A stretch of DNA of 64,000 nt, taken from an uncultured Anaerolineaceae bacterium (GTDB lineage: Bacteria; Chloroflexota; Anaerolineae; Anaerolineales; E44-bin32). The notes beneath the pieces were generated by a model. That model saw only the letters and a program-made list of their open reading frames with translations, had not been told where the DNA came from and made no database searches. This document shows, in pieces, positions 323 to 47,602 of this stretch; position 1 is the first letter of the stretch; each line of letters opens with the position of its first letter. Location: the NCBI GenBank assembly GCA_964575425.1, contig CAZNRD010000008.1, forward strand, positions 3,161 to 67,160, given 5' to 3'. The position numbers were made by a program, and so were the translations under genes.

Positions 323-1546
323 TCAATCGCCGAGTCGGCCGGAGCCGCGGTAGCGAGACGTGCGGCCCCCGTCCAGCCTCCGCCTCTGGATGGTGGCATC
401 TGGATGCCGCAGCCAAAGCCAGAGCCCCGTCGCCAGTCCCAGCCCGCCCAGGCCGAGGACGCCGAGGAGCAGAAGGGCGTCTCCAAGCGTCATGCGGGAA
501 ATGTAGGACAGCACCAGCCGTCCAGTGTGCGGCGGGGGCGCGACTTCGGGCGCAGGCAGGCCAGTCATCGTGGCGATGACTGCCTGATCTAGCAGGGCGA
601 GTGCAGTCCCGGTGGCGGCGGCCGCGGTTTCCAGTTCGGGTGGGAACATCCCGGGTGGAGTCGCGGTTGTGCTGGGCGAGGGTGTAGCGGTGGCCGACTC
701 AGCGGCGAGGAGTGCGACAGTCGATGTGGGCGCGATCGTTGCCGTCGGCGCAGATGTGCGTGTGATCATCGGGCTGGGCATGCGGGTATATGTAGGCCCT
801 GCGGTGGCAATCGGGCCGTCGGCGGCCGTATGGGTGGGAGCAACCGTCATCGTCCGCGTGGCAGTCGGGCTGGCGGTCGGCCCGGTTGTGGCGGTAGGCC
901 CACCAGGCGTCGATGTCGCGGTCGCTGTCTGAGTGCGCGTCGGAGTGTTGCTCGCAGTTGGTGTGCGCGTGAGGGTGCTCGTCAGTGGTGGGGGCCCCGT
1001 GTTGGTGGCCGTGGGCGAGTTGGGGAGCGCGCTCACGGTGAAGGAGCCGTTCGACAGACTGAGCGTGACGGGGTTGCCGCCTGGGTCGGTGGCAGCGGCG
1101 TTGCTCAGGCTCAGCGGGATGGTGCCAGGTGCGGCGCCAGCGAGCACGTTGAAGGTGACGAGGGCCACCGAACCATCTGGGATGATCTGATCGTTGAATC
1201 CGAAGATGATGACGCGGATGCTGCTGGAGCCAGGCCGTGAGCAGCTAATCAGCTTTCCTGCTCCCGCTGCCGCCGGGCCTAGGGCGACTGCCACGCCGTT
1301 GCATGATCCCGCAGGCACCTCGACGCGGCTGGCGTCAAAGCCAAGGTCGAAGTTCAGACCGGCGACCCGGGCTCCCGACTCCGACGTTAGGTTCACCGGG
1401 ACCGTTATGCCGGTCGCGCCCGGCAGCGCGGAGCCGCCACCGGCGGACAGGACCGCTTGCGGAGCCTGGGCGGCAGCTCGCGGGTGGGACCCAAGGGGCA
1501 GGATAGCCAGGATCATGGCCAAAAAGATACGTGTGCTCCGTGTCAT
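323..1546 (-). CDS. Membrane-anchored cohesin-domain protein (signal peptide, cohesin, Pro/Thr-rich linker, C-terminal TM helix)
   Basis: ATG at 1546 with GGAGGG RBS; signal peptide MTRSTRIFLAMILAILPLGSHPRAAA; cohesin-like beta-sandwich (ITVPVNLTSES…VAGLNFDLGFD…DGSVALVTFNV…SNGSFTV); long T/P linker; TM LLLLGVLGLGGLGLATGLWLWL followed by basic tail. Confidence 0.75.
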   Translation of the reverse strand: MTRSTRIFLAMILAILPLGSHPRAAAQAPQAVLSAGGGSALPGATGITVPVNLTSESGARVAGLNFDLGFDASRVEVPAGSCNGVAVALGPAAAGAGKLISCSRPGSSSIRVIIFGFNDQIIPDGSVALVTFNVLAGAAPGTIPLSLSNAAATDPGGNPVTLSLSNGSFTVSALPNSPTATNTGPPPLTSTLTRTPTASNTPTRTQTATATSTPGGPTATTGPTASPTATRTMTVAPTHTAADGPIATAGPTYTRMPSPMITRTSAPTATIAPTSTVALLAAESATATPSPSTTATPPGMFPPELETAAAATGTALALLDQAVIATMTGLPAPEVAPPPHTGRLVLSYISRMTLGDALLLLGVLGLGGLGLATGLWLWLRHPDATIQRRRLDGGRTSRYRGSGRLGD

Positions 1547-1598
1547 TAACGAGTCCCTCCGGCTCCGAAGTCTGCTGGATGGCCGCACACGGCCCGCC

Positions 1599-4500: not shown

Positions 4501-7500
4501 GGCTCCGCCTGCGATGGGTAGTAGCTGATGCCGGAGGCATCCTGGACCCGCAGACGGTATTCCCATTCACCAGCAAGCCTGGGCGCTAAGCGAACCGCCC
4601 AACGAGGTGCTCTGGATGGTGTGAGGTGGTCCCGATTACCAATGATTTTCAGGTTGTAGGACTGGAAGAAGAACCCGGGTTGCACGAGTGTGGTGCGCCA
4701 GCCATCGGCAGAGAACAAACCGTCCACGGTGACACCGATGCCAGCCGACACTCCCGGTGGAGGCGACGGATCGTAAGGCAGGCTCGGGTTCGAGGCGACT
4801 GTCTGTACATCAAACTGGACCTCGAACTTCTCGAACCGGGCGACCCTTGGCGTAGTCACTTCCAGGCCCGAGATCACCGGGCCCCTGGCGACCGCCGTGG
4901 GCGTCCGAGTCGGTGTCGGGGTGACTGTCGGCGTGACCGTCGGCGTGGCTGAGGGTCCGCCAGTGGGAGTCGGCAGGGGCGTCCCGGTGACGTCAGCCTG
5001 CAGTACGGCTACGAGCTTCTGGATCGAATACAGGTCACCTCTGCCCCAGGGCCGGTCGAGCCATGCCGAAAGCGTCGCCTGCGAATCGCCGACGATGTAT
5101 GCATGGGCCAGGAAGTGCGCCCAAGCCGTGCTCGGCGCGAGGCAGGACGTCTCACCGACCTCGGCATGTACACCCGCCCGGGTGAGATACCACCAGCGCA
5201 GACCATCCCCGTTCTCCAGCGACAGCAGGTGTGCCTGCGCCTGTCCGGAGGTCTGTTCACGCAAGTAGAGACCCACCTCCGGCGTCAGGCCGTAGAAGAC
5301 CGGTGCAGACCAACCGGTCGTCATCCCCCGCGGATCCAGGTAATCGTTGGCGGCCCGGTTGCGGAAGGCGGTGAAATCCCTCCCGGCTTCCATCGCGGCG
5401 ACGGCCGCCTGGATGCCTGCCTGGTAGGCCGCAGTCTCGCCGAAATACTGCGCCAGCCTTGCATACCCAATCGCACCAGCGATGTCAGCATAGTAGAACA
5501 TGCTGCCGCGTCGCGATTCAAAGAGCGACCTGGCGTTCGCCCACTGCGACCGCGCGTACGACCAATCGCCAGTGTTCTTCGACCACAACCACAGTGCGTA
5601 CAGGGCGGAGATGTTGGCTGCCGGCGGCGGCCAGCTGTTCAACTCGGAGCGGAACGGGACCTGGTAGGACTCTCTCGCGATGCCCTGCTTCAACCACGGC
5701 GTCCCACCCCACACCAGATCGGTCAAGGGGGGATACCGCCCCATTTCTGCCGCCACGTAGCTTCGCACCTCCGCCTGCAACGCGGAATCCAGGTACGGGT
5801 AGGCGGCTGCCAGGGTGTAGAGGAGCTCGCCCGGGTCGTGCCAGTACACGTTCCCATCGCCTCGGTAACTCACTTCCGGGACGCCGGGAGGGTTGGTCGT
5901 GTTGTAGGGCCAGATGTGGGACTCTGAGAAGCCGCGCTGCAGGTAGTACGGGATCAGGTGGCCGCCGGATGATGTAATCGCCCGAACCTCTGCCCGAAGT
6001 CTTTGCACCAGGTCCGCCGGAGGATTGGCGGCTGGCTGGGTCAGGTCGAGCGTGACATAGTCCGCGAGGGCGCGTGTCTGCACCGGTTGGGATGAACCCT
6101 GGTACGAAACGGACGGTGTGCCGGGCGTGGATGTCCAGACCCTGGGGGCAGGGCATGACGATCCGGCCCGATGCGCGATGGCCGCCAGTCCGCCCTCGAT
6201 CACCCTCCAGTACACCATGTTGGCAGCGACAACCGCCCCGCCCCGCTGGTGCCCCTCGGTCACGCGGGGCGAAGGGAATGGGTAGGCATTGTCACTCGCG
6301 GTCAGAGGGAAGAATGGATTTGGACCACCGGGGCCACACTCAACCGAGCATTCCGGCCACGTGTTAGACACATTGCCAGCGTGAATCAACTGACCCGTGC
6401 TGACGTTGATGCCTCCCAGGCGCTCCCAGTTGTCCACCCACAGGATGCTGCCCCCCATGGTGAGCATGGCTGGCTCATCCGACGTCATGCGGAACTCGGT
6501 GTTGTAGGCCGGATACCCGGATTGCCGCAGGCCGGTGATGTCCAGGGTGGCGGGATTGAGGCTCCCCAACTCAGCGTCGTATCGGGTTGTCACATGCACC
6601 GCACCGCCGTCTGTCTGGATCCCGTGCCGGGCGCGGTAAGAGACATAGATCGAGCTTCCACGGACAACGGGGGCATTCGGGATATCGTTATTGCCGTACG
6701 TGTACAGGATCGGAACGACGCCGCGCGAGGCCCCGGTGGAAACGTCAAGCGCGAAGAAGGTCGCCTTGGTTGGATCGCTTGTCAGGTAGCTGATGATCCG
6801 CGGACGAACATTGGCCCAGTCGTTATTCCAATCGGCAAGGACCGGGCCGGCCTGATCCATGACAGAGTCGCCTTCGCGCAGGAGAATCTGGAAGAAGTGG
6901 ACCGGCTGCGAGCGGTAGAAGACGGTCGAGCCGGAGACCACAGGATACCGATCCGCCAGGCTCATCCCTTGCAGCGGGACCTGCCAGGCACGCGCGCCAG
7001 TCGACGCATTGACGGCGATGGCCTGAATCGCCTCGTTGCCGAACAGGACGAGCGAACCATCCGCGCTCAGGGAAGGTGACGTGAGGATTGGAGCACCTGA
7101 GTCGTACTGCCAGAGGATGGCGCCGTTTGAGACGTTGAGTGCGGTCAGGATCCCGTTGGTGGAGCCGACGAACGCCCGCTGCCGAGAGGAATCGATCAGA
7201 GGAGCCGTCGCGCTGGGTCCGGTTCGGGTCCTCCAGATGAGCGCTCCCGAAGCGGCCTGCAGAGCGTAGGTGAACCCGTCGTGCGAGCTGAACACGACCG
7301 CGTCACCCGACACGCCGGCGGAATGCCGGATCGGACCCCCTGACACGTAAATCCACAGCGGCGCGCCGGTCGCCGCGTCGCGGGCATACATGGCCCCATT
7401 CATCGAACCGATGAACAGCCGCCCGCCCGAAACGACTGGTTGAGCTCGGGATGCGATCGGAGCCTCGTACCACTTCCAGGCGTAGCAGTACGGAGGGTCA

Positions 7501-7721
7501 ACCTGGACCGATGTGGAGTTGCTGCGTTGGGCGTCGCGACCGAGTTGAGGCCAGTCGCTGTCTGCCGATTGCGATGTATCCGCCGCCGTGCTTGCTGAAG
7601 TCTCAGCGCGGACAGGCAGCGCGCCTCCTGCCCAGCCTGAACTCAGGAGCCCCACAGCCAGCGCGATGGCGATCACCCCCCGCAGCAGACGAGCGCGTGC
7701 CCATGCGCCTACACCAATCAT
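1599..7721 (-). CDS. Giant secreted modular protein: PQQ-type beta-propeller + helical domain + DUF5060-like Ig domain + clan GH-A-like glycoside hydrolase with CBM-like insertions + C-terminal dockerin
   Basis: ATG at 7721 with GGAGGAAGG RBS; signal peptide; [12 protein letters not shown] and repeated LYALDAATG-x-LW-like propeller motifs; RFEKFEVQF…GEWEYRL (DUF5060-like); FEFVNEG (Glu codon 3471-3473) and KPLIAGEAG (Glu codon 2634-2636); twin [12 protein letters not shown] / [12 protein letters not shown] at the C-terminus. Confidence 0.8.
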
Positions 7722-8170
7722 CCTTCCTCCGTTCGGGGCGCAGTGCACTGGCCCATTCCGTCCATAGCCTTCTAGGGTCCGTACCACCTGCAGAGCTAAT
7801 CCTCCGGTACTACCCATTCTTCAGCGCCAGCCGGGGTACATCAATCCCCCAAGGGTCAGGGGAGTACCAATGGGGGGCCCAAGATGTGGCCGTCACTCCC
7901 GTCGGATTACCGCACCAACAATGGGCGCCGGATACTCAATTCCGATCCCGTAGACCCGCATCACACCATCCCCAGATCTAGCCCGAGATCGGGCAATCCG
8001 CTGCGGTCCTCTCTGAGACACGATCCGCCGGAGAGTCCCTCAACCAGGGTGGAGAAATGCACAGCGGCCCAGTTCGCTGCTCACGACGCGCGTGAGCACG
8101 GACCGTTCGCTCCCACATCTTGCACGCATCCCTGGCGGACGTTAGAATTGAGCGCGTTGGCCTCCAGACC

Positions 8171-8760: not shown

Positions 8761-9846
8761 GTGCACAGCGTACTGATCACCGGCGGCGCCGGATTCATCG
8801 GCTCCAACTTCGTCCGGCGGATTCTCGCGGCCGAGCCACAGGTGAGGGTCATCAACCTGGACAGCCTGACATACGCTGGGAGCCTGGCCAACCTCACGGA
8901 CCTGCCGGGTGCCGAACGGCACACCTTCGTCGAAGGGGACATCTGCAACGGCGAGTTGGTGGCCCAGCTGATGCAGGAGCACTCTATTGACACCTTGGTC
9001 CACTTCGCCGCCGAAACGCACGTCGACCGGTCGATCCACGGACCGATGCCCTTTGTCTTGACCAATATGGTCGGCACAGCCACTCTGTTGGAAGCCGCCC
9101 GACAGGTCTTCCTCGGCGATCCGGAGAGGAGACGGTCCGGTGTACGTTTCCATCATGTCTCCACCGATGAGGTGTACGGCTCGCTGGGACTTCACGATCC
9201 GGCCTTCTCGGAGACGACACCGTATGCCCCCAACTCGCCGTATGCTGCCTCAAAAGCCGGGAGCGACCACCTCGTCCGGGCCTACGCCCACACGTACGGG
9301 CTGCCGGTGACGATCACCAATTGCTCCAACAACTATGGGCCGCGGCAGCATCCTGAGAAGCTGATCCCCTTCATGATTCTAAACGCCCTCGACGGGAAGC
9401 CGCTCCCGCTGTACGGGGACGGCCTGCAGATTCGTGATTGGCTGTACGTGGAAGACCATTGCGCGGCGATCCTCGCCGTTCTGCGCCACGGACGGCCAGG
9501 GGAGACCTACCACATCGGTGGCGATACGAACGTGACAAACCGTCACGTTGTCGAGATGCTGTGCGCCATCCTCGACCAACTGATTCCCACCTCGCCACAT
9601 GTTCCCCACGCCGCACTGATTCGCTATGTCGCCGATCGGCCCGGCCACGATCGCCGCTACGCCATGGACACTCGCAAGATCCGGGGCGAAATCGGCTGGG
9701 CGCCTTCTGTCACGCTGGAGAGCGGGCTGCGCAAGACCGTGGCCTGGTACCTTGCGAACCCAGAGTGGCTGGCCGCCATGCGACAACGACCGACTTTCGA
9801 AGCCTGGTTGCAGGCCAATTACGCGACGCGAGGAACAGCCCGATGA
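8761..9846 (+). CDS. rmlB: dTDP-glucose 4,6-dehydratase
   Basis: GTG start after GGAGG; [45 protein letters not shown]. Confidence 0.96.
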
Positions 9847-10736
9847 GGGGGATCATCCTGGCCGGCGGGCGCGGCAGCCGGCTCCATCCGCTGACGCTGG
9901 GCGTCAGCAAACAGCTCCTGCCGCTGTATGACAAACCGATGGTGTACTACCCGCTCTCGATGCTGATGCTGGCCGGCATTCGCGAGATCCTGGTCATCAG
10001 TACGCCCGAGGATCTGCCGGCGTTCCGACGGCTGCTTGGCGACGGCCGTCAGTGGGGACTGCAATTCGACTACGCCGAGCAGGACAGACCGCGCGGCATT
10101 GCCGACGCGTTCCTCGTCGGCCGCGACTTCATTCGCCGGGAGCCGGTCTGCCTGATCCTGGGAGACAACGTGTTCTTCGGTCACGGACTGCCAGCCCAAC
10201 TCCGGGAGGCGGCAACCTTGACCGAGGGCGCCATCATATACGCCTATCCGGTGCGGGATCCCCAGCGCTACGGCGTGGTCGAGTTTGACGCCCAGGGCCG
10301 GGCAATCAGCATCGAGGAGAAACCGCGGCGGCCGCGCTCGAATTTCGCCATCCCCGGCATCTACTTCTACGACAGCCTGGTTTGCGATATCGCAGCCAAC
10401 CTGAAGCCATCTGCCCGCGGGGAGCTGGAGATCACCGACATCCACCAGCACTACCTGGCGCGCGGCCTGCTCCGGGTCAAGCGGCTCGGGCGCGGGATAG
10501 CCTGGCTCGACGCCGGTACCCATGAGTCGTTGCTGCAGGCAGCGAACTTCGTGCAGGCCGTCGAAGAGCGGCAGGGCTTGATGATCTCCTGCCCTGAGGA
10601 GATCGCCTTCCGCCAGGGCTACATCACCGAGACCGACCTCCGCCAGCTTGCCAATGCCATGTCGGACAATCGGTACCGCGCCTATCTCTTGGCCCTCGTA
10701 GAGGGAGATTCTTGGTCCCCTCCCGCCGAGCCGTGA
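9843..10736 (+). CDS. rmlA: Glucose-1-phosphate thymidylyltransferase
   Basis: ATGA overlap with the rmlB stop; [48 protein letters not shown]. Confidence 0.96.
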
Positions 10737-12253
10737 ACCGGATCCTCCTCTTTGGCAACACCGGGCAGCTCGGGTGGGAATTGGATCGCTGCCTGGCCCC
10801 CCTGGGTGAGGTTACCGCCCTGGATCTGCCCCAGATCGACCTGGCTCGCCCGGCGATGGTCAGGGAGGTCATCCGCGCCCGCCACCCCGACCTGATCATC
10901 AACGCCACCGCATACACCGCCGTCGACAAGGCCGAATCGGAGCCGGACCTGGCCCGCCGCATCAATGCCGAAGCTCCTGGCATCATGGCAGAGGAATCCA
11001 GGCGGATCGGCGCGGCATTCATCCACTACTCGACGGACTACGTGTTCAACGGACAGGCCTGCCGGCCCTATACCGAGGCGGATAGTCTCGATCCACTCAG
11101 TGTCTATGGGGCGACCAAGCTGGAGGGAGAGGAAGTTGTTCGCCAAGTTGCTGGATCCTACCTGATCCTGCGGACGAGCTGGGTCTATAGTCTGCGGCGC
11201 AGGAGCTTCGTCACCCAGGTGATGGAATGGGCACGCACCCGACAGGTTCTCCGGGTGGCCACCGACCAGGTCGGCAGCCCGACGTGGTGCAGGATGCTGG
11301 CGGAGGCAACGGCGCATCTCATCGCTCGCCTTGAAGGTGCACCTGTCGATGCTCTGCGAGAGCATTCCGGCGTGTTTCATTTGGCGGGCAGCGGGGCCGC
11401 CAGCCGTTATGAATGGGCACGCCTGATCCTCAATCTCGACCCACACCGCGAGGAGCACACACTGCGAGAGCTCCAGCCCGCGCTTGCGTCTGAGTTCCCT
11501 TCCTCTGCACGGAGACCCGGCTACTCTGCGCTCAACTGCGACTTGTTCCACTCAACCTTCGGGCTGAGGCTTCCCGATTGGAGGCAGGCGCTCCGGCTGG
11601 CGATGTCTGATGACCAATGGAGAGGCTCTTCACTGCAGCCGGCCGCATGGACTCGGGAATCCAGTGATGACGGACCTGACGAGAACCCCCGTGCTCTGCG
11701 ACCGGCGCTCTTCCTGGATCGCGATGGTGTGATCATCGAGAACCGCGAGGACTACCTGCGCGCCTGGGATCAAGCGGCCATCATCCCCGGCGTGTTGTCA
11801 GCTCTTGCCCGTGCACGGTCCTCACCTTATGCCATCGTCATCATCACCAATCAGTCCGCCATCGGACGCGGCCTGATCGACCGATCCACGGCTGATGAGA
11901 TCAATGCCCGCTTGGTCGCTGCGATACAGGATGCCGGCGGGCGTGTGGATGGTGTGTTCATGTGTCCACATGCTCCCGAGGCCGGCTGCGACTGCCGCAA
12001 GCCGCAGCCGGGGCTTGTGCTGCAGGCAGCACGCGCTTTGTCTGTTGATCTTGCGCGATCGGTGCTTGTCGGAGATGCCCTGAGTGACATTCTGGCTGCA
12101 CGCGCCGCTGGCGTACCTCAGGCAATACTCGTTCGTACAGGCCGGGGGAACGAACAGCTTTCGCTCGCTGGAGACGCAGCCCTCGCCGACATCTGCATCT
12201 ATGACAACCTGCCCCAGGCGCTTGACGCGATCCTTGGCCACGAGTGCCAATGA
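10733..12253 (+). CDS. rmlD: Fusion: dTDP-4-dehydrorhamnose reductase (RmlD) + HAD-family D,D-heptose-1,7-bisphosphate phosphatase (GmhB-like)
   Basis: GTGA overlap; [39 protein letters not shown]; then in the same frame [22 protein letters not shown]-x-CDCRKP, VGDALSD. Confidence 0.88.
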
Positions 12254-12397: not shown

Positions 12398-14002
12398 TCA
12401 CCTTTTCTGCGCCGCGTCCAGGGCTGTCGCTGCCGGGTTGGCTCCGCCGGCCCCTCCCAGATACCCCTTGTAGTCTCCAAGCGTATCCAGGTCTGCTCGG
12501 GAAACCCGGTTGAGCACCATGCCCAGCACTGTCGCGCCGGCACGATCCAGCTGAGCCAGCATGGCACGTGCGGCGTTGCGCGACGTATGGCCAGGGCGAA
12601 CAATGACCAGCACCCCGTCAACCTTGGACGCCAGGACGGAGGCATCGGCGAGGCTAAACGGCGGTGCATCAACCACCAGGATTTCGGCCAGCGAGCGCGC
12701 CCCGACAAGGATCTCATCCATGCGCCGGGAGCTGAGCAGCTCGGTTGGGTTCGGCGGCGGCTTGCCGGCAGGAATCGCGAGCAGAAGGCCGTCACTGGCT
12801 ATGGTGACGATTTCGGCGGGTTCCTTGCGACTCAGAAAGATGTCGCTCAGACCAGGCGACATCGGTATGCCCAACAGTTTGTGGACGCCCGGCTGCCGCA
12901 GGTCGGCATCGACCACCGCTACGCTCTTGCCGGCATGCGCCATGGCCGATGCCAGGTGGACGGCAATTGTGGTCTTGCCTTCATCCGGACCGGGACTGGC
13001 CATCAAGATGGCCTGCAAAGGCCTGTCGACCGAAGCAAACTCGAGGTTGGTCCGCAAGACGCGCAGCGCCTCCATCAGGGCCGGCTGACTCGTCGGATCG
13101 GCCAGCATTCCTCCTTGCTTCTCACTGCCGCTGTCCGATGGCTTGATCTCCCCGATCATGCCGATGACCGGCAACCCCAGCAGCCGCAATGCCTCTTCCG
13201 GGGTCTTCAGCGAGGTATCCATGTACTCCAGCAAGTAGGTGGTGCTGCAACCCAGGATGCCGCCCGCCACCCCGGCCAGCAGGGCGAGCAGGATATCACT
13301 GGGCCCAATGGGGCGCTCCGGAAGGCCCGCCGGCTCGATGAGTGTCAGGAAGTTGACCGCTCCGCTCTCGCTGCTGGCCAGCAGCGTGGCATAGTTCGCC
13401 TGCAACGCGGCGAGTTTCGTCTGCAACGCCTCAAGCTCTGCCTGGGCACGGGCGATCTCCACGGCGCCGGTCAGTCCGACCAACCCCTCCTGCTGCGCAG
13501 CAATTCTCGCCTGCACCTCCTCGATGTTGGCTTGCAGGAAATCCAGCTGCTGGTCAATGAAGCGCTGACGGCCTTCTTGGGAGGCGACCGGGCCGGTGGG
13601 GCTAAGCAGGATGACCTGATTGGCTATCTCGTTGGCGACGGCCTGGGCCCGCTGCGGACTGGTGTCGGTGACGATGATCTCAACGAGCTGCGCCTCTGGG
13701 ATCGACCGGGTCTCATATCTTGGCAGCTCCGCCAGCCCCAGGGCCGCCTTGGTTGCGTTGCGCACAGGGTCGCGGCGCGCCAGTGCAGCGTAGGTGTCCG
13801 CGAGGCGTTCGCCGAGCCCGAGTTGTGTGGTGGTCGGATTGGGTTCAAACACTGTCCGACCAATCATCAAGGCGGCACGGGCCTGATAGGTCGGGGGAAG
13901 GTGGTTGAGGATTACTGCGCTGGCCACCAGGCCCACGCCGGCGGTACTTATCACCAACCACCACCACTTGCGAATCGGCGCCAAGTAGGATTGAAGATCC
14001 AT
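12398..14002 (-). CDS. Wzc/CpsD-like polysaccharide co-polymerase with BY-kinase domain
   Basis: N-terminal TM, coiled coil, second TM; EALRVLRTNL, Walker A SPGPDEGKTT, Walker A' VVDADLRQP, Walker B VVDAPP. Confidence 0.9.
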   Translation of the reverse strand: MDLQSYLAPIRKWWWLVISTAGVGLVASAVILNHLPPTYQARAALMIGRTVFEPNPTTTQLGLGERLADTYAALARRDPVRNATKAALGLAELPRYETRSIPEAQLVEIIVTDTSPQRAQAVANEIANQVILLSPTGPVASQEGRQRFIDQQLDFLQANIEEVQARIAAQQEGLVGLTGAVEIARAQAELEALQTKLAALQANYATLLASSESGAVNFLTLIEPAGLPERPIGPSDILLALLAGVAGGILGCSTTYLLEYMDTSLKTPEEALRLLGLPVIGMIGEIKPSDSGSEKQGGMLADPTSQPALMEALRVLRTNLEFASVDRPLQAILMASPGPDEGKTTIAVHLASAMAHAGKSVAVVDADLRQPGVHKLLGIPMSPGLSDIFLSRKEPAEIVTIASDGLLLAIPAGKPPPNPTELLSSRRMDEILVGARSLAEILVVDAPPFSLADASVLASKVDGVLVIVRPGHTSRNAARAMLAQLDRAGATVLGMVLNRVSRADLDTLGDYKGYLGGAGGANPAATALDAAQKR

Positions 14003-14195: not shown

Positions 14196-15407
14196 TCAGG
14201 GCAGCTCGCCGTTCGGGCGCGGAGACGTAGCCTCAGCCATCGGGCGCACAAACCCCAGGATATCCGCCCCCGCCATGGAGACGCAGACGGCGACGGCGGC
14301 AAGCATGGCCACGTCGTCCTGCGTCAGCTGGGAACCCTGTCCTTGAACGATCGTCATCACCCCGGCAACGCGACCCCGGACCATCAACGGCACACAGGCT
14401 GCAGATCGCCGGACCTGCTCGTCTTTCTCCCACGCGGTTGGGAGCCAGCGCGGGTCATCAAGCGTGCTGCTGACCAGCGCCGGTTGGCGGTTGTCAATCA
14501 CCCAGCCGGCGAGCCCGCGCCGTACGGTGTCCTCCAGCCCGTGGGCTCGGCGAACGCTGCCTGCATAGGCCAGCGCCGCCTCGACGACACTTCGGTCCTC
14601 ATCCAGGATCAGGAGGCTGCCGCTGGTAGCACCCAGGCCCGAGACCGTCAACCCAAGGATACGCTGCAAGATGACGCCCGGATCATTGCCCGGCGTCAAC
14701 TCGCGGCCCAGCGCCGCCAGAAGCTCCAGCCGATCCCGGGCCTGGCCCGCTCCACTACCCGGAGCCTGGAGGGGGAGGTCGCGCTCAGTTGCCGGTTGAG
14801 GGGTCTCACGACTGAACAGGGCGCCCGGTTCCACCGGTATGCTCCCGCTGGGGTGGACCTCTTCGCGCAACGCCTTGCAGATCATGTGCTCGAGCGAGAG
14901 GTGGATGTCCTCCACGTGCTCTATCGTGCGACTGGGCACGTTGATGTGGATGGCGACCTTCGACCCCAGCTCGCCGCCATCGAATCCAGTCAGTCCGACG
15001 GTGGTTGCACCCAGCGCATTCGCCAGGTCGATGGCGCGCAGCACATTCGCTGAGTTGCCACTGGCTGAGATCCCGATCACAACATCGCCCGGCCTGGCCA
15101 GATTGGCCAGCTGCTCGGCAAACACGCTCTCGTAGCCATCGTCGTTGGCGTAGGCAGAGAACACCGCCATGTTGTCTGTCAGTCCGATCACCCGGAAGTG
15201 AGGACAGTCTGGACGGCGGGCGTTCTTCGCCAGGTCACAGACAAAGTGCGAGGCTGTCGACGCGCTCCCGCCGTTTCCCAGGATAAACACCTGCTGGCGT
15301 CGAAGCCGCGCCTGTTCCAGTAGCTGGATCACCTGCTCAATCTGTTCTACGGGCAGATTGTCCAGGGTCTCGTGAAGCTGGACGACGTACGTAAGAACAC
15401 GGCTCAT
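14196..15407 (-). CDS. gmhA: Sedoheptulose-7-phosphate isomerase (SIS domain) fused to a C-terminal GAF domain
   Basis: GNGGSASTASHF, ANDDGYESVFAEQL, GISASGNSANV, GLTGFDGG, EDIHLSLEHMI; C-terminal GAF-like GLAGWVIDNRQPALV…RSAACVPLMVRGRVAGVM; RBS GAGGAGG. Confidence 0.88.
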   Translation of the reverse strand: MSRVLTYVVQLHETLDNLPVEQIEQVIQLLEQARLRRQQVFILGNGGSASTASHFVCDLAKNARRPDCPHFRVIGLTDNMAVFSAYANDDGYESVFAEQLANLARPGDVVIGISASGNSANVLRAIDLANALGATTVGLTGFDGGELGSKVAIHINVPSRTIEHVEDIHLSLEHMICKALREEVHPSGSIPVEPGALFSRETPQPATERDLPLQAPGSGAGQARDRLELLAALGRELTPGNDPGVILQRILGLTVSGLGATSGSLLILDEDRSVVEAALAYAGSVRRAHGLEDTVRRGLAGWVIDNRQPALVSSTLDDPRWLPTAWEKDEQVRRSAACVPLMVRGRVAGVMTIVQGQGSQLTQDDVAMLAAVAVCVSMAGADILGFVRPMAEATSPRPNGELP

Positions 15408-15447: not shown

Positions 15448-16428
15448 CTACGCGCGCCGGTAGTTGAAGATCACCTTGGTGCCGTCGGGCTCCAGACCAA
15501 AGGAGAGTTCCGGAAGGTGTTTCAGGGCGGCACGAAGGTCGTCATGCCTCTCTCTAGGGCATGCCAGGATCATGAAGCCTCCTCCCCCCGCGCCGGTGAG
15601 CTTGCCGCCCAGTGCACCGGCGCGGCGAGCGACCTCATACAGATCGTCCACGTTGCCATTGCTGATCGTGCTTGCCATGCGCTTCTTCAGCTCCCACCCC
15701 TCGTGCAAGAGGCGGCCGATGTCGTCCAGCCTGCCAGCCTGCAGCTCAGCTCGCGCCTGCATGGCCAGCTGTTTTATTTGCCGTAGGATGGGCCGGCGCT
15801 CGCGGATATTGGAGCGCTGCTCGGCCAGAATCGCCTCCGATTGACGGGTGACGCCAGTGAAGAACAGCAGCAGGCTTTCGCTCAACCTGCGCTGGGTCTC
15901 ACCGCTCAGTTCGACGCGCTCGGTAGTCACGCTCCCATCGGTCTTGAATTCCATGAACCGCAGCCCACCGAGAGCCGCAATGTACTGGTCCTGCACGCCG
16001 ATGGGCTTGCCCAACATCTCAATCTCGATCCGACACGCCTCGCGCGCCAGCCGTTCAGCCGGGACGAGCTCACCCCGGTAGGTGTACATCGCGTGCAACG
16101 CACCGACCGTAACGGCGCTGGATGAGCCAAGGCCCGATCCGGCCGCCGGGATGTCGGCCATGGTCGTTATCTCGACCCCCTCCCGGATTCCCGTCAGGCG
16201 CATCGCTTCCCGAATCAACTCGTGCTGCACCTCATCGACCGACTCGACCATCTCGGTGCGCGTGTATCCGATGCGCAGCAGCCGGTCGAAGCGACGCTTA
16301 ATGGTCACGAAGATGTACTTATCGATGGCCGTGGTCAGTACACAGCCGCCCTCTTCGCGGTAGTAAGCGTCGAAGTCCGTTCCCCCGCCAAACAGGCTGA
16401 CCCGCAAAGGGGTCTGGACGATGATCAT
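15448..16428 (-). CDS. hddA: GHMP kinase, D-glycero-alpha-D-manno-heptose-7-phosphate kinase-like
   Basis: [44 protein letters not shown]; adjacent to gmhA. Confidence 0.85.
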
Positions 16429-17357
16429 GTCGGCTGCTCTGCGTTCCGGAAGTATTCAACCGTCCGCAGGATTCCATCTTCGAGACTCACCAACGCCTGC
16501 CAGCCGAGGTGGGAATAGACCTTTCCTGCATGCAGGAAGATGCGACGTGTCTCGCCGGCCTTGGGTGGGCCATAGCTCGGCCGCCGGGTGTAGCCCGTGG
16601 CCTGCGCGAGTACCTCGAAGATCTGGTTGATGGTTGTGCCACGAGCGGAACCCAGGTTGTATATCCCAGCGGCGTTGGGGTTTTCAAGCGCCAACAGGTT
16701 CGCTCGAGCGCAATCTCCGACGAAGACGAAGTCGCGTTCCTGTTCCCCATCCCCGTTGATGACAACCGGCTCGTCGGCAAGCATCTGGCCCGTGAAGATG
16801 GCCACAACTCCGGCTTCGCCATGGGGATCCTGGCGTGGACCATAGACATTCGGGTAGCGGAGCACAACATAGTCAAGCCCATAGAGCTGTCGATACATGT
16901 ACAGGTAGTGCTCGACGGTGTGCTTGCTGACGCCGTAGGGGCAGATCGGGTTGATGGGATGGCTCTCGTCGCAGGGCAGGTACTCCGGCTCCCCGTACAC
17001 GGCCCCTCCGGTTGAGATGTAGATCATGTGCTTGACCGCGTGACGCCGGGCGCACTCCAGCACATTGACCGATCCGAGGACGTTGACATCGGCGTCAAAG
17101 CGGGGGTCGGCTACCGACCAGCGGACGTCCATCTGGGCTGCGTGATGGTTGACCGCGTCAAAGCCCTCCCGGGCAAAGACCTCGTCCAACCCAGGATCGC
17201 GGATGTCGAGGCGATAGAAGGTGGCGGCAGGGTTCAGGTTCGACACCCGGCCGGTAGACAGGTCGTCGATGACGACGACTTGGTGACCTTGCTCGATGTA
17301 GGCATCAACGACGTGCGAGCCGATGAACCCGGCACCGCCGGTTACCAGGATCCTCAC
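16425..17357 (-). CDS. NAD-dependent sugar epimerase/dehydratase (UDP-glucose 4-epimerase-like SDR)
   Basis: GTG after GGAGG; [43 protein letters not shown]. Confidence 0.9.
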
Positions 17358-17428
17358 GGATTTGACCTCCAGATGGAATTCAGAGCGCGCCTCGGCGGAC
17401 AAGCCCCCGAGACCGGGCAGCGACAGGA

Positions 17429-18934
17429 TCAGTAGGCTCCCCGCCTCGTGAGCACAGCCGGTATCGTCCGGATTAGCAACTGAATATCGAACCAGAATGA
17501 GTAGTTGCGAATGTAGTACATGTCCATCCGGACCCGGTCATCGTACGAGACGTCCGAGCGCCCACTGACCTGCCACAGCCCTGTGATGCCAGGCTGGACA
17601 GTCAGCAGATTCAGGTCCCACTGACTGTACTTGCTGATCTCCTCTGGCGTGATCATTCGCGGTCCGACAAGCGACATCTCGCGGCGCAGGACATTGACCA
17701 GCTGCGGCAGTTCGTCCAGGCTGCTCCGGCGCAGGATGCGCCCAACCCTTGTCACCCGCGGGTCGTCCCTAAGCTTGTAATTCACCTGAAGCTCCCGCGC
17801 AAGGTCGGTGCAGCGCTGCAGGACAGCGTCGCTATCAACCCGCATCGTGCGGAACTTGAAGGCGTCAAACTGCCGCCCCCGCGCACCCAGGACGCGTCGG
17901 CGGTAGATGACCGGGCCTGGCGAGTCCAGCCGGATAGCAATGGCGATGATCGCCAGCAGCGGGGCAAGCACAATCAAGCCCGGCACCGTGATGACGTAGT
18001 CCAACACGAACTTCCCAAAGCGCTCAGCGCTCGTCAATCTCATCTTGTTAACACCGACCAGTGGCACTGTGCCTAGCTCACGCACCTGCAAGCCAGTGGT
18101 GATGATCTCAAACAGACCTGACGATAGCCGGAGATTCACGTGCTCTGAGACGCCGAATCGCTTGAAGGTCGATACGATCTCATCTCGAGTCAGAGCAGAC
18201 GTCGCCAGAATCAGCTCTTCCACCCCGTTGCGCTGGATCAGCTCGTCCAGGCCGCCCAATCCGGACAGCACGCGCAACTGCCTCAGCACAGGGGTTCCCT
18301 CGGGCACCCGATCATCCACGAACCCAAGCAGGCGCAGTCCGGAAGTTGTCCAACTCAGGAGCTGTTCCGCCAGCGCCTTCCCTTCCGGGCCAGCGCCGAC
18401 GATGATCGCCGGACTCAGAAACCACCCGACGCGCCGCAGGGCGTAGATCACGCGGCGCAGCCAGAAACGCCCCGAGGAGGTGAACAGGAAGATCAGCCCC
18501 CAACCAAGAACCAGCCAGCCGCGAGACACGAGGACCTGTCCGAAGAAGCCGGCTGACATCATCACCAGAACCCAGATCGTGGAGGCATTGAAGATCAACG
18601 AGTACTCACGCACTCCGCCCAGCAGATTGCCCCGCTGGTAGCCACCCAAGACGCCGACCAACAACATCCAGGCCGGGATGGACAGCAGCGCAAGCAACTG
18701 ATAGCCCTGCATCACTGGAGCAACGTCGATCTCAAAGATCGGCAGCGCCAACTCAAAGCGAAACCAGTAGGCAACACGTAGTGCCGCACTGACGAGCAGG
18801 GCGTCCATCAGGACAAGACCGACGATGAGGCCGCGCCATTGCCAGACAAGAGGCCACGTCAGGCGCGCCAGCCGCGGTTCCATGCGGGGAACCGTCTCCA
18901 CGAGTGCCTCAAACCCGGGAGCGGATGACTTCAT
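17429..18934 (-). CDS. Priming polyprenyl-phosphate glycosyl-1-phosphate transferase (WcaJ/WbaP-like)
   Basis: N-terminal TMs, CoA-binding-like segment, FKFRTM, DPRVTRVGRILRRSSLDELPQLVNVL, PGITGLWQVSGRS. Confidence 0.93.
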   Translation of the reverse strand: MKSSAPGFEALVETVPRMEPRLARLTWPLVWQWRGLIVGLVLMDALLVSAALRVAYWFRFELALPIFEIDVAPVMQGYQLLALLSIPAWMLLVGVLGGYQRGNLLGGVREYSLIFNASTIWVLVMMSAGFFGQVLVSRGWLVLGWGLIFLFTSSGRFWLRRVIYALRRVGWFLSPAIIVGAGPEGKALAEQLLSWTTSGLRLLGFVDDRVPEGTPVLRQLRVLSGLGGLDELIQRNGVEELILATSALTRDEIVSTFKRFGVSEHVNLRLSSGLFEIITTGLQVRELGTVPLVGVNKMRLTSAERFGKFVLDYVITVPGLIVLAPLLAIIAIAIRLDSPGPVIYRRRVLGARGRQFDAFKFRTMRVDSDAVLQRCTDLARELQVNYKLRDDPRVTRVGRILRRSSLDELPQLVNVLRREMSLVGPRMITPEEISKYSQWDLNLLTVQPGITGLWQVSGRSDVSYDDRVRMDMYYIRNYSFWFDIQLLIRTIPAVLTRRGAY

Positions 18935-22062: not shown

Positions 22063-23751
22063 TCACGGGTGCTCTACCGAGTAGATCTGGACTTCCGGGG
22101 TTTCGTAGGCCAGTGACAGGTACGAGGCATTGGCCGGGTTGAAGCTGCCCAGAGCCCGCTCGGGGCGCCCCATGTAGACAAAGTCCACACCATAACGGGC
22201 AAGCAGGAGCCGCCTTTCGTCATCCGTCGTATCGCCAGCGTAGAAGAGTTCGACCGCCGCCCTCTTGCTAAAGAAGTCCAGAGTCTGTGCCCAGTGAGCG
22301 AGGAATGCATTCGTGCCGGTCCATGCGGGGAGGTACTGGCCGATGGTCAGTGAGCTGAGCACAACATCCTCTGCTTCGGCATTCGTCTCCAGCCACTGGA
22401 AGGCCCGCGCGTCCTGTGTCGATACATAGAATGGGTACTCATAGCGCGAAAGATCGTAGAAGCGCCAGGCCAACAGGTAGACGTTCGTCGGAACAATCAA
22501 GGCCAGGAAGACGGCGGGAACGGCCCGCCGCAGCCGGTCGGCCGATCGTCCGCTCAGTTTCCGCGTCTGGGATGTCCAGGGGATCACGTCTTCACACAGA
22601 CCCTTCGTGGCCATGAGGGCGATCGGCACCTGCCAGCCGTTCAGCAAATGGACCTGGAAATCGACTGGAAGGTAGATGAGCCCGAAGTACGAGAGGAACC
22701 ACCCGATGAGGAACACGTCCCCATGGCTCTGCGAGGCAAGACGCCAAGGCCTGCGACGCACAAGAGCGAAGAGCGCCAACAGGAACGCTGGCCCCAGGAG
22801 GATCACCAGGTCGAATGGCGGGGGTGAGAATACGCCTGCGTTGTCGAATTGCGACAGCACTTCCCTCCATATGGGATTGGAGTGAGTCAACCACATGGAA
22901 TACAACGCTGGCCACACGGAAAGGCCGCCTATGATCAGACCGCTTGAGATCAGGTAGCGAGGCAAGCGCCGGTCGCGGATCGACCGTAGCAGAGCATAGG
23001 CCAGGAGCACCGCGTAGACCGACACAAGATCATATGCATGCTGCCAGCCAAGAAACTGGGCCACCAACCCCGCGACCACCGCATGCCCCAGGCTCGCCTT
23101 CGCCTCGCCGCGCAGCAAGAGATCGAACACCAGCACATATACCGCTGCCGCGACGAAGTGCGGATACCCCAGAATGCCGAGGAAGGTGTTCGCCTCGGCG
23201 ATGTACACTGCCATGGGTCGGAGTAGAACGCCGTTCGTCACGGTGTATTTCAACACGACCAGGATCCAGCCGAAGCCGGAGGTGAGCGTGAGGGTCAGGA
23301 ACGCCACCCGACGTCTGAACCGGTCGGGGAAGTACCAGGCACAGATGCGGTAGGCCGCCCACAGGAATGCGCTCGCCGCGGCCACGCGCAGCAAGTGGTA
23401 CATCGGAGCGAACCCCACGCCCATGACCCGGCCAATTCGGCCGAGCATCCACCACAGGAGGTTGAAGAATGCGGGCCGATTCGGCTCCGGAGTAAGCTTG
23501 TTCGCTGCCAGGTGCGACTGCCCCAGCTCCCGCATCCATGAGAAGTATTGCGCGTGGTCGGGCACATCCAGCATGATTCCCATGAACTGCCGGTCGGGCG
23601 GCGCGCTCAAGTACGCATACGCGTACGGCAGGCTGGTGATAAGCAGGACTGCCAGGGTTACGCCCATGACGAAACGCCATTCGGCCGCAGGGACATGGTT
23701 TGATGTCCCCGCCGCCGCGGCCGGCATGGGCCCGCTGACGCACTGCTTCAC
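22063..23751 (-). CDS. Polytopic membrane protein, GT-C-like (lipid-linked sugar transferase candidate)
   Basis: Many TM helices, acidic first loop (DVPDHAQY), C-terminal soluble domain; GTGA overlap with the upstream gene. Confidence 0.55.
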   Translation of the reverse strand: MKQCVSGPMPAAAAGTSNHVPAAEWRFVMGVTLAVLLITSLPYAYAYLSAPPDRQFMGIMLDVPDHAQYFSWMRELGQSHLAANKLTPEPNRPAFFNLLWWMLGRIGRVMGVGFAPMYHLLRVAAASAFLWAAYRICAWYFPDRFRRRVAFLTLTLTSGFGWILVVLKYTVTNGVLLRPMAVYIAEANTFLGILGYPHFVAAAVYVLVFDLLLRGEAKASLGHAVVAGLVAQFLGWQHAYDLVSVYAVLLAYALLRSIRDRRLPRYLISSGLIIGGLSVWPALYSMWLTHSNPIWREVLSQFDNAGVFSPPPFDLVILLGPAFLLALFALVRRRPWRLASQSHGDVFLIGWFLSYFGLIYLPVDFQVHLLNGWQVPIALMATKGLCEDVIPWTSQTRKLSGRSADRLRRAVPAVFLALIVPTNVYLLAWRFYDLSRYEYPFYVSTQDARAFQWLETNAEAEDVVLSSLTIGQYLPAWTGTNAFLAHWAQTLDFFSKRAAVELFYAGDTTDDERRLLLARYGVDFVYMGRPERALGSFNPANASYLSLAYETPEVQIYSVEHP

Positions 23752-25334
23752 CGCAAACCCCTCACACCACTCCTGCCCTGAGCCTCACCGCATCCTGGCG
23801 ACGGGGCACAGTTGATCGACGCCGAAGCAGAGGGCTCGGACAGAGGACAAAGACGGCCAGGCAGCCTGCCCCATCCGACGGCGGCCAACAAGGCCACCAC
23901 ACCCAAGAGCGGCAAGAGGCTGGAGGCTCCCGAAAGGCCCAGCAGTGTGCCGATGTTGCGGGCTATGTTTCCGTCCGCCCAGTTCGGCAAGGCATACTGC
24001 ACCAGGGGATTGTGCAGCTCGTCCGAAGGAAAAGCCTGTCCGGCGAGCGTCAGGCCCCATGTGGCGACCCAGGACCATGCGCCCGCGCCGACTACCGCCC
24101 AGCGAAACGGCGCCCGAGACCCCCAGGCGCGGAGGGCAAAGGCTAGGCCCAATGCCAGGAACGGAAGGCCAGGAAGGAGGTAGCGAGGCCCGACAGCAAA
24201 ACCTCCCCACCACATCCCAGACGAAGCGTTGAACCACATCATGCTCATGCTAATCGTCGCCGCCACCCACCACTCGGCGCGCCAATGGCACGATCTCCAC
24301 CAGGAAAGGAAACCAGACATGGCAAGAAGCAGAATCGGGGACAGCAGAAACAACCCGCGGAATGCGCTGAAGGTGATCCCCCAGATCGACTCGGCCCGTG
24401 GGAACGTCAGACTCAGGAACCCGCGCTGGTGCTCCTCCACCCACAACGCCGAGTACGAATACCCAAAGCCCCAGGGCTCACCGAAAACTACGGTGTTGTA
24501 TCCCAACCAACCTGCAATGAAGGGAGACCCTCCTAGCAGCACCCATACGATGGCATGCACCTGACGCTGCCCAATCAATTGCCCCACCGTGTAGATGCCT
24601 ATGATGACCGCGACAATACCCGCAGGATACTCCGTCACTACAGCTGCTGCCAGGAGTGCCCCGATCGCCGCCAGGCGGCCCGGCCTCATCCCGACTCTGC
24701 CACCATAGGCCAACACGAACGCACCGAACAGGAACGCCGCTGCCAGCTGATGCCCGTAAAGCGCGCCGGCGTAGGCAAAGGCTGGCGAGAGCAGGCCGTA
24801 CGCCAACACCGTGCCCATGCGGATGAGAGGGTCCGGGGTGACGTTTTCCAGCCAGCGATACATGCCCACGCCAAGCAGTGCGCTGGGCACGCCGGCCAGG
24901 GCAAACGCCAGCGCCACCTGGACGATGGCGAACCGGATCTTGCCGGCCTGGATGCCACTGCCTTCTGACCACAGGGTGCTGCTGAATGCCTGGTTTGACG
25001 CCAGCCGTATCTCAAGCTTCTCGACCAACGGGGTGGCGAGCACAGGCCGAAGGGCGGCATAGATGGGAACGCCCAGGAAGGCGACACCAGGCGCTTTGTC
25101 GCTGTAGTAGTGGCCATCCACATAGGCGTAGTCGACAGTATTGGAGACGTACCGGTCAATCTGGAAGGTGTGATCGTCGACGATGGCGAACACCATGTCG
25201 AGGCGGGAGTTCTGATTCGGATCGGCCCAGCGCGGGAAGATGTACGCGTAACAGGCCAGCAGGATGACAAACAACAACAGGCTGCGCCGGCGTTCGCCGC
25301 TGACCGTATTGTTCCCGTACTCAGCCGACATCAT
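23748..25334 (-). CDS. Polytopic membrane protein, GT-C-like
   Basis: Extracytoplasmic loop DPNQNSRLD…YYSDKAPG after TM1; many TMs; GPRYLLP motif. Confidence 0.55.
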   Translation of the reverse strand: MMSAEYGNNTVSGERRRSLLLFVILLACYAYIFPRWADPNQNSRLDMVFAIVDDHTFQIDRYVSNTVDYAYVDGHYYSDKAPGVAFLGVPIYAALRPVLATPLVEKLEIRLASNQAFSSTLWSEGSGIQAGKIRFAIVQVALAFALAGVPSALLGVGMYRWLENVTPDPLIRMGTVLAYGLLSPAFAYAGALYGHQLAAAFLFGAFVLAYGGRVGMRPGRLAAIGALLAAAVVTEYPAGIVAVIIGIYTVGQLIGQRQVHAIVWVLLGGSPFIAGWLGYNTVVFGEPWGFGYSYSALWVEEHQRGFLSLTFPRAESIWGITFSAFRGLFLLSPILLLAMSGFLSWWRSCHWRAEWWVAATISMSMMWFNASSGMWWGGFAVGPRYLLPGLPFLALGLAFALRAWGSRAPFRWAVVGAGAWSWVATWGLTLAGQAFPSDELHNPLVQYALPNWADGNIARNIGTLLGLSGASSLLPLLGVVALLAAVGWGRLPGRLCPLSEPSASASINCAPSPGCGEAQGRSGVRGLR

Positions 25335-47552: not shown

Positions 47553-47602
47553 GCGTCCCCTTCTCCCCACTCCGGCCCACCGACTCCAAGTGAAGGGCAG
47601 GC

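Follow-up and report, generated by a model that had tools for sequence, protein, structure and literature searches.

A GmhA-like SIS domain fused to a GAF domain in Anaerolineae, and the attachment of the same GAF sub-clade to other polysaccharide-synthesis proteins

The SIS-GAF gene and its family

We analysed a 64,000-nucleotide stretch of DNA (the window) from an uncultured Anaerolineaceae bacterium of the phylum Chloroflexota (contig CAZNRD010000008.1), which contains a gene whose product joins a SIS domain resembling that of the phosphoheptose isomerase GmhA to a C-terminal GAF domain. The gene is a single open reading frame (ORF) on the minus strand, opening with ATG and encoding 403 aa before its stop codon (Table 1). 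Pfam assigns SIS_2 to residues 11-141 (e = 2.8e-15) and the GAF_2, GAF and GAF_3 entries to residues 242-377 (e-values from 1.8e-16 to 2.3e-11), all above their gathering scores. The best of these, GAF_2, spans residues 242-373 with e = 1.8e-16, and in bits the GAF half reaches 61 for GAF_2, 52.3 for GAF and 44.6 for GAF_3, against cut-offs of 28.6, 22.4 and 27, respectively. No third domain, and in particular no further output domain, is found by Pfam in the protein.

An AlphaFold2 model of the whole protein, made with a family alignment of 38 sequences, has a mean predicted local distance difference test score (pLDDT) of 85 and consists of two confident domains with a disordered segment, residues 185-217, between them. 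Judged by structure (pLDDT below 50) the linker is about 33 aa long; measured between hidden Markov model (HMM) boundaries, the gap between the SIS and GAF domains is 28-62 aa across 31 fusions. An earlier note on this DNA, made from the sequence alone, had read the gene product as a SIS/GmhA-type domain joined to an entire GAF-like domain and lacking a kinase or other output domain. That architecture is borne out by Pfam and AlphaFold2 as well as by the PDB sequence matches and Foldseek comparisons below, and the note's figure of about 45 aa for the linker is reasonable.

The fusion was then sought more widely. A search of 5.8 billion proteins recovered the query's own sequence (P0001, a 100% self-match) and gave 1033 matches at e < 1e-5; the best 120 clusters all contain both SIS and GAF (49-75% identical to the query, 349-425 aa). 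More than 571 relatives turned up in a scan in which each species was represented by one genome, and the locus counts given here refer to the best 80, ranked by match length, so that fusions are probably over-represented among them. All 80 are from Chloroflexota, mostly Anaerolineae (Anaerolineales, Bellilinea, Ardenticatenaceae and Promineifilaceae), and they include the cultured Longilinea arvoryzae KOME-1. Using HMMs built from each half, we found the fusion in 31 of these loci and a stand-alone SIS protein of around 190-210 aa, 57-69% identical to the query's SIS half, in the remaining 49. Far from being a one-off, the SIS-GAF fusion represents an uncharacterised family that is widespread in Anaerolineae.

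The continuous ORF occurs in 31 genome loci and in no fewer than 120 independent clusters, which rules out an assembly or frameshift artefact; only in locus L035 are SIS and GAF split over two adjacent ORFs. Automated pipelines call family members 'D-sedoheptulose 7-phosphate isomerase' (JGI) or, in one NCBI case, 'GAF domain-containing protein'. In the literature searched we found incidental co-mentions but no description of the SIS and GAF architecture or of heptose synthesis in Anaerolineae, in line with the earlier statement that no characterised example was known. The sequence was recovered from DNA runs of subsurface metagenome only, with no RNA run among them.

The SIS domain and its metal site

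The likeness of the SIS half to GmhA is evident in both sequence and structure. In a phmmer search of the PDB, the N-terminal 189 aa match solved phosphoheptose isomerases with e-values from 1.2e-28 (1x92) to 4.9e-20. With Foldseek, the modelled domain aligns with the GmhA structures 1x92, 1tk9, 5i01 and 2x3y at target-normalised TM-scores (TMt) of 0.79-0.87 and probability 1.00. When compared with the GmhA proteins of Escherichia coli, Pseudomonas aeruginosa (1x92) and Burkholderia pseudomallei (2x3y), the domain shares the SIS_2 fold (TMt 0.82-0.87) at 28-33% identity. The phosphate-binding motifs GNGGS and S-x-S-G-x-S are kept as G44-N-G-G-S48 and S114-A-S116-G-N-S119, both invariant in the family, and the two metal histidines of GmhA are present as H54 and H174. 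The genomic partners, a heptokinase and a GmhB-type phosphatase, are likewise the same. GmhA differs in being a stand-alone protein of around 190-220 aa, whereas the SIS-GAF protein bears a C-terminal GAF domain, has Asp, Glu and Thr in place of Glu68, Gln175 and Asp61 and belongs to a family restricted, among the loci retrieved, to Chloroflexota.

These substitutions fall at positions of known importance. The zinc ion of B. pseudomallei GmhA is coordinated by H64, E68, Q175 and H183, a tetrad stated to be completely conserved among GmhA orthologues; the Q175E mutant is inactive and traps substrate, and D61 couples the paired active sites (Vivoli et al., PMC5705639). In the SIS family, H64 corresponds to H54, E68 to D58, Q175 to E166, H183 to H174 and D61 to T51, a residue mapping which agrees across all three printed alignments to solved GmhAs. 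The putative metal tetrad is therefore H-D-E-H (H54, D58, E166, H174), as against H-E-Q-H in GmhA. T51 and the four tetrad residues are invariant in all 38 sequences of the family alignment and in 80 of 80 fused and stand-alone proteins, and the same is true of S48, K61, D89, S114, S116, S119, D167 and H169.

Scores against the four NCBIfam GmhA equivalog models are also below the curated cut-offs: 111.7 bits against 209.45 for TIGR00441, 116.1 against 276 for NF010546, 97.8 against 265 for NF001628 and 96.8 against 320 for NF010547. On two of the features tested, metal tetrad and curated score cut-off, the protein is thus not a GmhA in the strict sense. The earlier description of its SIS/GmhA motifs as intact holds for the phosphate motifs but not for the metal site and the coupling residue, where the replacements are fixed throughout the family, nor for the match to the curated models.

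We infer that the metal site has been remodelled and probably still works, rather than being dead, because the replaced residues are invariant and four potential metal ligands (His, Asp, Glu, His) are kept. The last SIS helix of the AlphaFold2 model (residues 162-182), which directly precedes the linker, carries E166, D167, H169 and H174, and an influence of the GAF domain on these catalytic residues is conceivable. An alternative identity for the SIS half as a DiaA-like replication factor, which has the GmhA fold and matches at 1e-23, was rejected in view of the gene's place in a conserved sugar-enzyme operon (see below).

The GAF domain and its sub-clade

The GAF half, modelled alone with AlphaFold2, gives a pLDDT of 89 and a predicted TM-score of 0.83. 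The order of elements in the model is alpha1-alpha2-beta1-beta2-beta3-alpha3-alpha4-beta4-alpha5-beta5-beta6-alpha6. The top 50 Foldseek matches in the PDB are all GAF domains (TMt up to 0.76), and the fold neighbours include NifA, PDE5A, a Nostoc response regulator, PtsP, DosS/T and Lcd1. By sequence, the closest solved GAF to the C-terminal 214 aa is the cAMP-binding domain of Leptospira Lcd1 (5w10, e = 8.8e-8). Free methionine-sulfoxide reductase, a GAF_2-family enzyme with catalytic cysteines, was rejected as an identity for the GAF half, which has no conserved cysteines.

When the GAF half alone was compared exhaustively with 1.84 billion representative proteins, the matches were of two kinds, single-GAF proteins at 39-67% identity and giant multi-GAF sensors at around 25-30%. 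The best GAF domain of all 149 retrieved matches was aligned, 56 being single-GAF and 93 sensor-type or multi-GAF. Residues kept in the first group and much rarer in the second are S262 (91% against 12%), Y281 (85% against 20%), T315 (100% against 24%), W321 (100% against 59%), R334 (96% against 50%) and T352 (94% against 31%). W326, present in 94% of single-GAF proteins, is not even among the three commonest states in the sensor group, where a gap (23%), Asp (22%) and Gly (9%) lead. By contrast, G298, W302, D318, R320, S335, P340 and G349 are common to both groups and are generic residues of the GAF fold. On this alignment, the enzyme-attached GAF domains are a sub-clade of their own, with S262, Y281, T315, W321, W326, R334 and T352 as hallmarks, and the signature is identical on every type of carrier protein.

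The nearest relatives of the sub-clade that are not attached to enzymes are N-terminal GAF domains of histidine kinases. P0124, one of these, has the architecture GAF-GAF-PAS-HisKA-HATPase and an unrelated genomic context; among the 11 closest sensor-type GAFs it alone was confirmed as such by domain scan. W326 occurs in none of the 11, Asp being commonest there (5/11). The idea that the sub-clade is identical to the histidine-kinase GAFs had therefore to be moderated, as the nearest sensor-type domains share the core without W326.

The kept polar and aromatic residues can be placed on the secondary structure of the model: S262 and S264 on beta1, Y281 on beta2, W302 and N/H306 on alpha4, T315, D318, R320 and W321 in the beta4-alpha5 loop, W326 on alpha5, R334 and S335 on beta5 and T352 on beta6. 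They would therefore sit on elements which form the ligand pocket in canonical GAF domains. In an alignment to Lcd1 made by eye, in which we take the Asp of the Lcd1 'VDE' segment to be the Asp of the NKFDE motif of cyclic-nucleotide GAFs, the motif positions are occupied by N306, R307, W321, W326 and E327, so that the motif Asp becomes an invariant Trp and the motif Lys an Arg.

As far as sequence comparison can show, the GAF domain is an optional add-on and not required for catalysis, since GAF-less orthologues hold the same operon slot as the fused forms and the two forms interleave on the tree. The GAF-less orthologues, found in 49 of 80 loci, have an active-site signature identical to that of the fused proteins. 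On a neighbour-joining tree of the SIS domains, which carries no support values, Fitch parsimony counts 11 changes of state between fused and stand-alone.

Pfam scans of the single-GAF matches identified the proteins to which this sub-clade is attached, and on every carrier so identified the GAF domain is C-terminal. They include Wzc-like P-loop proteins (P0167, P0171, P0173, P0224, P0255 and P0161), proteins with a receiver and a GT2 domain (P0206, P0210), a GT2 fragment (P0222) and a longer SIS protein (P0226). Small DUF2304 membrane proteins (P0235, P0195) likewise bear the W326-type GAF, and so, among these matches, do N-terminal regions of around 145-240 aa without a Pfam match (P0135, P0203 and others). 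In P0180 the polarity is the reverse, an N-terminal GAF being followed by a CofD-like fragment.

The genome loci add further carriers. Triple fusions of heptokinase, SIS and GAF are encoded in L015 (2-2161), L017 (1922-3823) and L025 (8837-11185), and in the last two a GalE-like short-chain dehydrogenase/reductase (SDR) in the same operon has its own C-terminal GAF of the sub-clade (L017 107-1708; L025 7192-8793). Wzc-GAF proteins are encoded in L082 (10001-12250), L083 (1395-3647) and L085 (3079-5109). L082 and L083 have an operon orthologous to that of the window (in L082 the glycosyl-phosphotransferase is 54%, the SDR 68% and the kinase 63% identical), in which the GAF is borne by a Wzc protein encoded directly after the heptokinase, with no SIS gene between them; in L082 there is no SIS gene within 10 kb on either side. 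In L085 and L086 a Wzz-P-loop-GAF protein is encoded between a small glycosyl-phosphotransferase and flippase/Wzy genes, in a cluster without heptose genes. The proposition that the GAF is always encoded beside Wzc was rejected, as only 5 of 31 fused loci have a Wzc gene within 3 kb. Distributed in this way, the sub-clade appears to be an add-on for regulating the cluster as a whole, not a heptose-specific switch.

The operon and its surroundings

The SIS gene, with or without its GAF extension, has a recurrent set of neighbours. The usual order is an initiating polyprenyl-phosphate glycosyl-phosphotransferase (PGT), often a GalE-like SDR, a GHMP kinase and then the SIS gene, with a GmhB-like HAD phosphatase convergent downstream. 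Within 3 kb, the SIS gene is accompanied by a GHMP kinase in 67 of the 80 loci (28/31 fused, 39/49 stand-alone), by a PGT in 60 (26/31 and 34/49) and by a GmhB-like phosphatase in 49 (15/31 and 34/49). In the window, the successive intergenic distances from the PGT gene to the SIS-GAF gene are 26 nt, a 4-nt overlap and 40 nt, which fits a single operon; a scan for promoter and terminator consensus sequences around the operon gave matches at chance level.

Table 1. The SIS-GAF gene, its parts and its neighbours in the window
Feature	Position	Strand	Evidence
Whole SIS-linker-GAF gene	14196..15407	-	ORF list; Pfam SIS_2 + GAF_2; homologous clusters with same architecture
GmhA-like SIS domain, residues 1-184	14856..15407	-	PDB GmhA matches; Foldseek; family-invariant residues
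Disordered, non-conserved linker, residues 185-217	14757..14855	-	pLDDT <50; unalignable and length-variable in family alignment
GAF domain, residues 218-384 (helix alpha1 to alpha6), enzyme-attached sub-clade	14256..14756	-	Pfam; model; Foldseek; signature
Non-conserved C-terminal tail, residues 385-403, and stop codon	14196..14255	-	Low pLDDT at 394-403; without conservation in family alignment
HddA/WcbL-type GHMP heptokinase, upstream operon partner	15448..16428	-	Pfam GHMP_kinases_N/C; NCBIfam HddA; PDB
GalE-type UDP-hexose 4-epimerase (SDR), operon partner	16425..17402	-	Pfam Epimerase; PDB 4zrm, e = 2.6e-95
Polyprenyl-phosphate glycosyl-phosphotransferase (initiating PGT), operon partner	17429..18934	-	Pfam Bac_transf + CoA_binding_3; TIGR03025 383 bits, above cut-off
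Wzc-like chain-length/BY-kinase-type P-loop protein, downstream, without GAF here	12398..14002	-	Pfam; NCBIfam
GmhB-like HAD-IIIA heptose-bisphosphate phosphatase domain	11702..12232	+	NCBIfam; residues 331-507 of RmlD-GmhB ORF 10712-12253

The adjacent kinase is closest to solved heptokinases. Its four best PDB matches (3k85, 4usm, 4usk and 4n3o) are all of that class, with e-values from 1.8e-43 to 4e-35, and the next class, fucokinase, follows at 2e-19; its score with the NCBIfam HddA model, 163 bits, is below the equivalog cut-off of 600. The GmhB-like domain scores 173 bits with PRK08942/NF006506, marginally below the cut-off of 178, and 148.7 bits with TIGR01656, above cut-off. These two genes give the SIS-GAF gene a heptose-pathway-type setting, which supports the pathway named in the earlier note; the GalE-type SDR belongs to a different precursor branch. 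By sequence, isomerase, heptokinase and phosphatase would make up the first three steps of the route to GDP-D-glycero-alpha-D-manno-heptose.

The GmhB-like domain of the window is itself part of a fusion. In ORF 10712-12253 on the plus strand, RmlD (residues 10-299, 300 bits, above cut-off) precedes the HAD-IIIA domain (331-507). Such a fusion is seen in none of the 49 GmhB-like genes of related loci, and the nearest relative, L001, encodes RmlD in a neighbouring ORF of its own.

The operon lies within a glycan island which extends from around 8.6 to 61 kb and encodes RmlB, RmlA, several GT4 and GT2 transferases, two Wzy-like proteins, a flippase, acyltransferases, a DegT aminotransferase, a UDP-GlcNAc 2-epimerase and a radical SAM protein. 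The only nucleotidyltransferase of the window is a true RmlA (around 9840-10736; 457 bits against a cut-off of 360), and neither a second nucleotidyltransferase nor a second SIS or GAF gene was found within the window. Four ORFs of the island, all on the minus strand and encoding 449-562 aa (22063-23751, 23748-25334, 39903-41252 and 41259-42815), have no Pfam match, although one of them weakly matches the NCBIfam entry for the LA_3751/LA_3752 putative glycosyltransferase family. An 810-aa protein encoded at 45261-47693 (minus strand) combines an N,N-dimethylformamidase-like DMFA2_C domain with a purple-acid-phosphatase N-terminal domain. The radical SAM protein, of 547 aa, is encoded at 57670-59313 (minus strand), and a radical SAM gene is also seen in the related cluster L081.

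Outside the island, a cohesin-domain protein (323-1588, minus strand) adjoins a protein of 2072 aa (1599-7817, minus strand), which has a PQQ/BamB-like beta-propeller and, at its C-terminus, a type I dockerin. The two may form a cohesin-dockerin pair, here in the genome of a subsurface member of the Chloroflexota.

Possible functions of the fusion

The interpretation we favour, to which we would give a probability of about 0.5, is that the GAF domain is a signal-input or association module shared by polysaccharide-synthesis proteins, and the SIS half an isomerase of the heptose branch. Residues 1-184 would then be a GmhA-like SIS ketose/aldose phosphate isomerase with sedoheptulose 7-phosphate as its presumed substrate, from a subfamily which is specific to Chloroflexota and in which the metal site has been remodelled to His-Asp-Glu-His. 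Together with the HddA/WcbL-type heptokinase and the GmhB-like phosphatase, it would most likely supply D-glycero-D-manno-heptose 1-phosphate for a surface polysaccharide, the genes for whose assembly occupy the window. Residues 218-384 would be a canonical GAF domain, flexibly tethered through around 35 aa, dispensable for catalysis and belonging to a sub-clade repeatedly joined to different polysaccharide-cluster proteins, so that several steps of production could be tied to one intracellular cue. Self-association of the GAF domain, dependent on a ligand, would probably alter the oligomeric state, accessibility or location of the tethered enzyme. For the SIS-GAF protein itself, we infer the substrate of the isomerase, the binding of a ligand by the GAF domain and the mode of coupling between them.

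Known systems offer partial parallels. The arabinose-5-phosphate isomerases KdsD and GutQ consist of a SIS domain and a C-terminal CBS pair; like the SIS-GAF protein they are SIS isomerases of surface-glycan precursors with a C-terminal accessory domain that binds small molecules, but the accessory domain is a different one, the SIS domain is of another subtype and the pathway is that of Kdo. Canonical GAF domains placed directly on an enzyme, with no transcriptional output, are found in PDE2/5/6/10, CyaB, Lcd1 (GAF-GGDEF, 5w10), GAF-HD-GYP (4mcw) and PtsP (3trc), and GAF domains of such enzymes are among the top Foldseek matches of the query GAF. In these GAF-regulated enzymes, however, the GAF domain is N-terminal to the catalytic domain and coupled to it through a helical connector, whereas here it is C-terminal, optional, carried by different, unrelated proteins of a single pathway and attached by a disordered linker of variable length.

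Several observations weigh against the favoured interpretation. The first is this difference in polarity, as a result of which coupling in the SIS-GAF protein would have to work differently from that in the known GAF-regulated enzymes named above. Secondly, the linker is long, disordered and variable in length; being also non-conserved, it counts against rigid allostery and in favour of effects of proximity or oligomerisation. Thirdly, the fold neighbours of the GAF domain bind ligands as unrelated as 2-oxoglutarate, haem, bilins, cGMP and cAMP, and its repeated loss could equally mean that it contributes little. On the SIS side, the metal site contains the very Gln-to-Glu change that inactivates B. 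pseudomallei GmhA, so that neither activity nor substrate is assured. Finally, HddC, the heptose-1-phosphate guanylyltransferase, was found neither in the window nor within around 10 kb in 78 of 80 loci; a nucleotidyltransferase of any kind lies within that distance in only two. The module resembles the GDP-heptose pathway GmhA-HddA-GmhB-HddC known from clusters for capsules and S-layer glycans (B. pseudomallei WcbL, 4usk; Campylobacter jejuni, 4n3o) in grouping a SIS isomerase, a GHMP heptokinase and a HAD-IIIA phosphatase within a polysaccharide locus; it differs in the missing fourth enzyme and in that all three enzymes fall below NCBIfam equivalog cut-offs.

The reading of the GAF domain as a shared module can be taken a step further. 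It is possible, although we would not call it probable, that the sub-clade marked by W326, T315 and R334 serves Anaerolineae as a receptor for one intracellular signal, distributed over several proteins and synchronising several steps of exopolysaccharide synthesis post-translationally. Such a receptor would sit on the isomerase, the heptokinase, the UDP-hexose epimerase, the Wzc-type chain-length/export protein and glycosyltransferases. By analogy, the logic of one signal and many enzymes would be similar to that of cyclic di-GMP/PilZ control in Proteobacteria, with a GAF domain as the receptor.

The main rival holds that the GAF domain binds no ligand and serves purely in assembly or tethering, GAF-GAF dimerisation or docking to Wzc or the PGT recruiting precursor enzymes into a metabolon. 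This we regard as doubtful. The invariable C-terminal position of the GAF on a long, flexible, non-conserved linker would suit a tether well, as would the diversity of its carriers, membrane-bound (Wzc, DUF2304) and soluble, which have only membership of polysaccharide clusters in common. Two GAF-bearing proteins, SDR-GAF and kinase-SIS-GAF, are indeed encoded per operon in L017 and L025, but 27 of the 31 fused loci lack another such GAF within 10 kb, so that hetero-pairing within the cluster is not general. The N-terminal helix alpha1, needed for dimerisation of the Lcd1 GAF (PMC11800159), is present in the model. W326 is specific to GAFs attached to enzymes, none of the 11 nearest sensor-type domains having it, and would fit a dedicated interface; the invariant residues as a whole, however, are mostly polar and appear to lie on elements that form the pocket, not in any obvious patch on the surface, and the closest relatives outside the sub-clade are input domains of sensor kinases.

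A second alternative concerns the SIS half, which may not be a sedoheptulose-7-phosphate isomerase at all but act on another ketose phosphate, or bind a sugar phosphate without catalysis and so form, with the GAF domain, a two-sensor regulator. This is unlikely, although it would account for the H-D-E-H tetrad in place of H-E-Q-H, with Q175E known to be inactive in B. pseudomallei GmhA (PMC5705639), for the Thr at the position of the active-site-coupling D61, for scores far below the NCBIfam GmhA cut-offs, for a module without HddC and for loci L082 and L083, which keep the kinase without an adjacent SIS gene. The invariance of the substituted residues, the phosphate loop and D89 in 80 of 80 proteins is the pattern of a working site, not a decayed one, and the changes of Glu to Asp and Gln to Glu look like a paired remodelling which preserves the four metal ligands. 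The SIS gene is, besides, tightly linked to those for a heptokinase-type GHMP kinase and a GmhB-type phosphatase, and the stand-alone protein, around 200 aa long, lacks a partner domain that could pass on a signal.

Least well supported is the idea of an allosteric gate dedicated to the heptose isomerase and switched by a cyclic nucleotide or a sugar phosphate, the heptose-specific cyclic-nucleotide version above all. The earlier note had placed the first committed step of heptose synthesis under such a gate, and the heptose-pathway context, the closeness of the GAF to that of cAMP-binding Lcd1 and the position of E166, D167, H169 and H174 on the helix just before the linker, where a C-terminal appendage could in principle act on them, would agree with this. 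The claim is nevertheless much weakened and now appears improbable: the same sub-clade is found on Wzc-like, GT2, GalE-type, DUF2304 and kinase-SIS proteins, partly in clusters without heptose genes; GAF-less orthologues are common; the SIS metal site is non-canonical; the invariant W326 stands at the position of the NKFDE Asp and an Arg at that of the motif Lys, in a mapping made by eye; the structural neighbours do not single out one class of ligand; and the disordered linker fits rigid coupling poorly.

Significance

A GmhA-like subfamily which naturally bears the Gln-to-Glu substitution has a bearing on the mechanism of GmhA and on the reach of inhibitors directed against it. Of greater interest than the single fusion, however, is the roaming GAF sub-clade. 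The filamentous Anaerolineae abound in sediments, the subsurface and wastewater sludge, where their surface polysaccharides probably shape aggregation, and hardly anything is known of the regulation of their glycan synthesis; the cultured carrier L. arvoryzae KOME-1 makes experiments feasible. The sub-clade is found on at least six kinds of polysaccharide-synthesis proteins. Should it be a docking domain, it would mark a metabolon reaching from precursor supply to assembly; should all its members bind one ligand, it would represent a new layer of post-translational control and a new class of GAF ligand.

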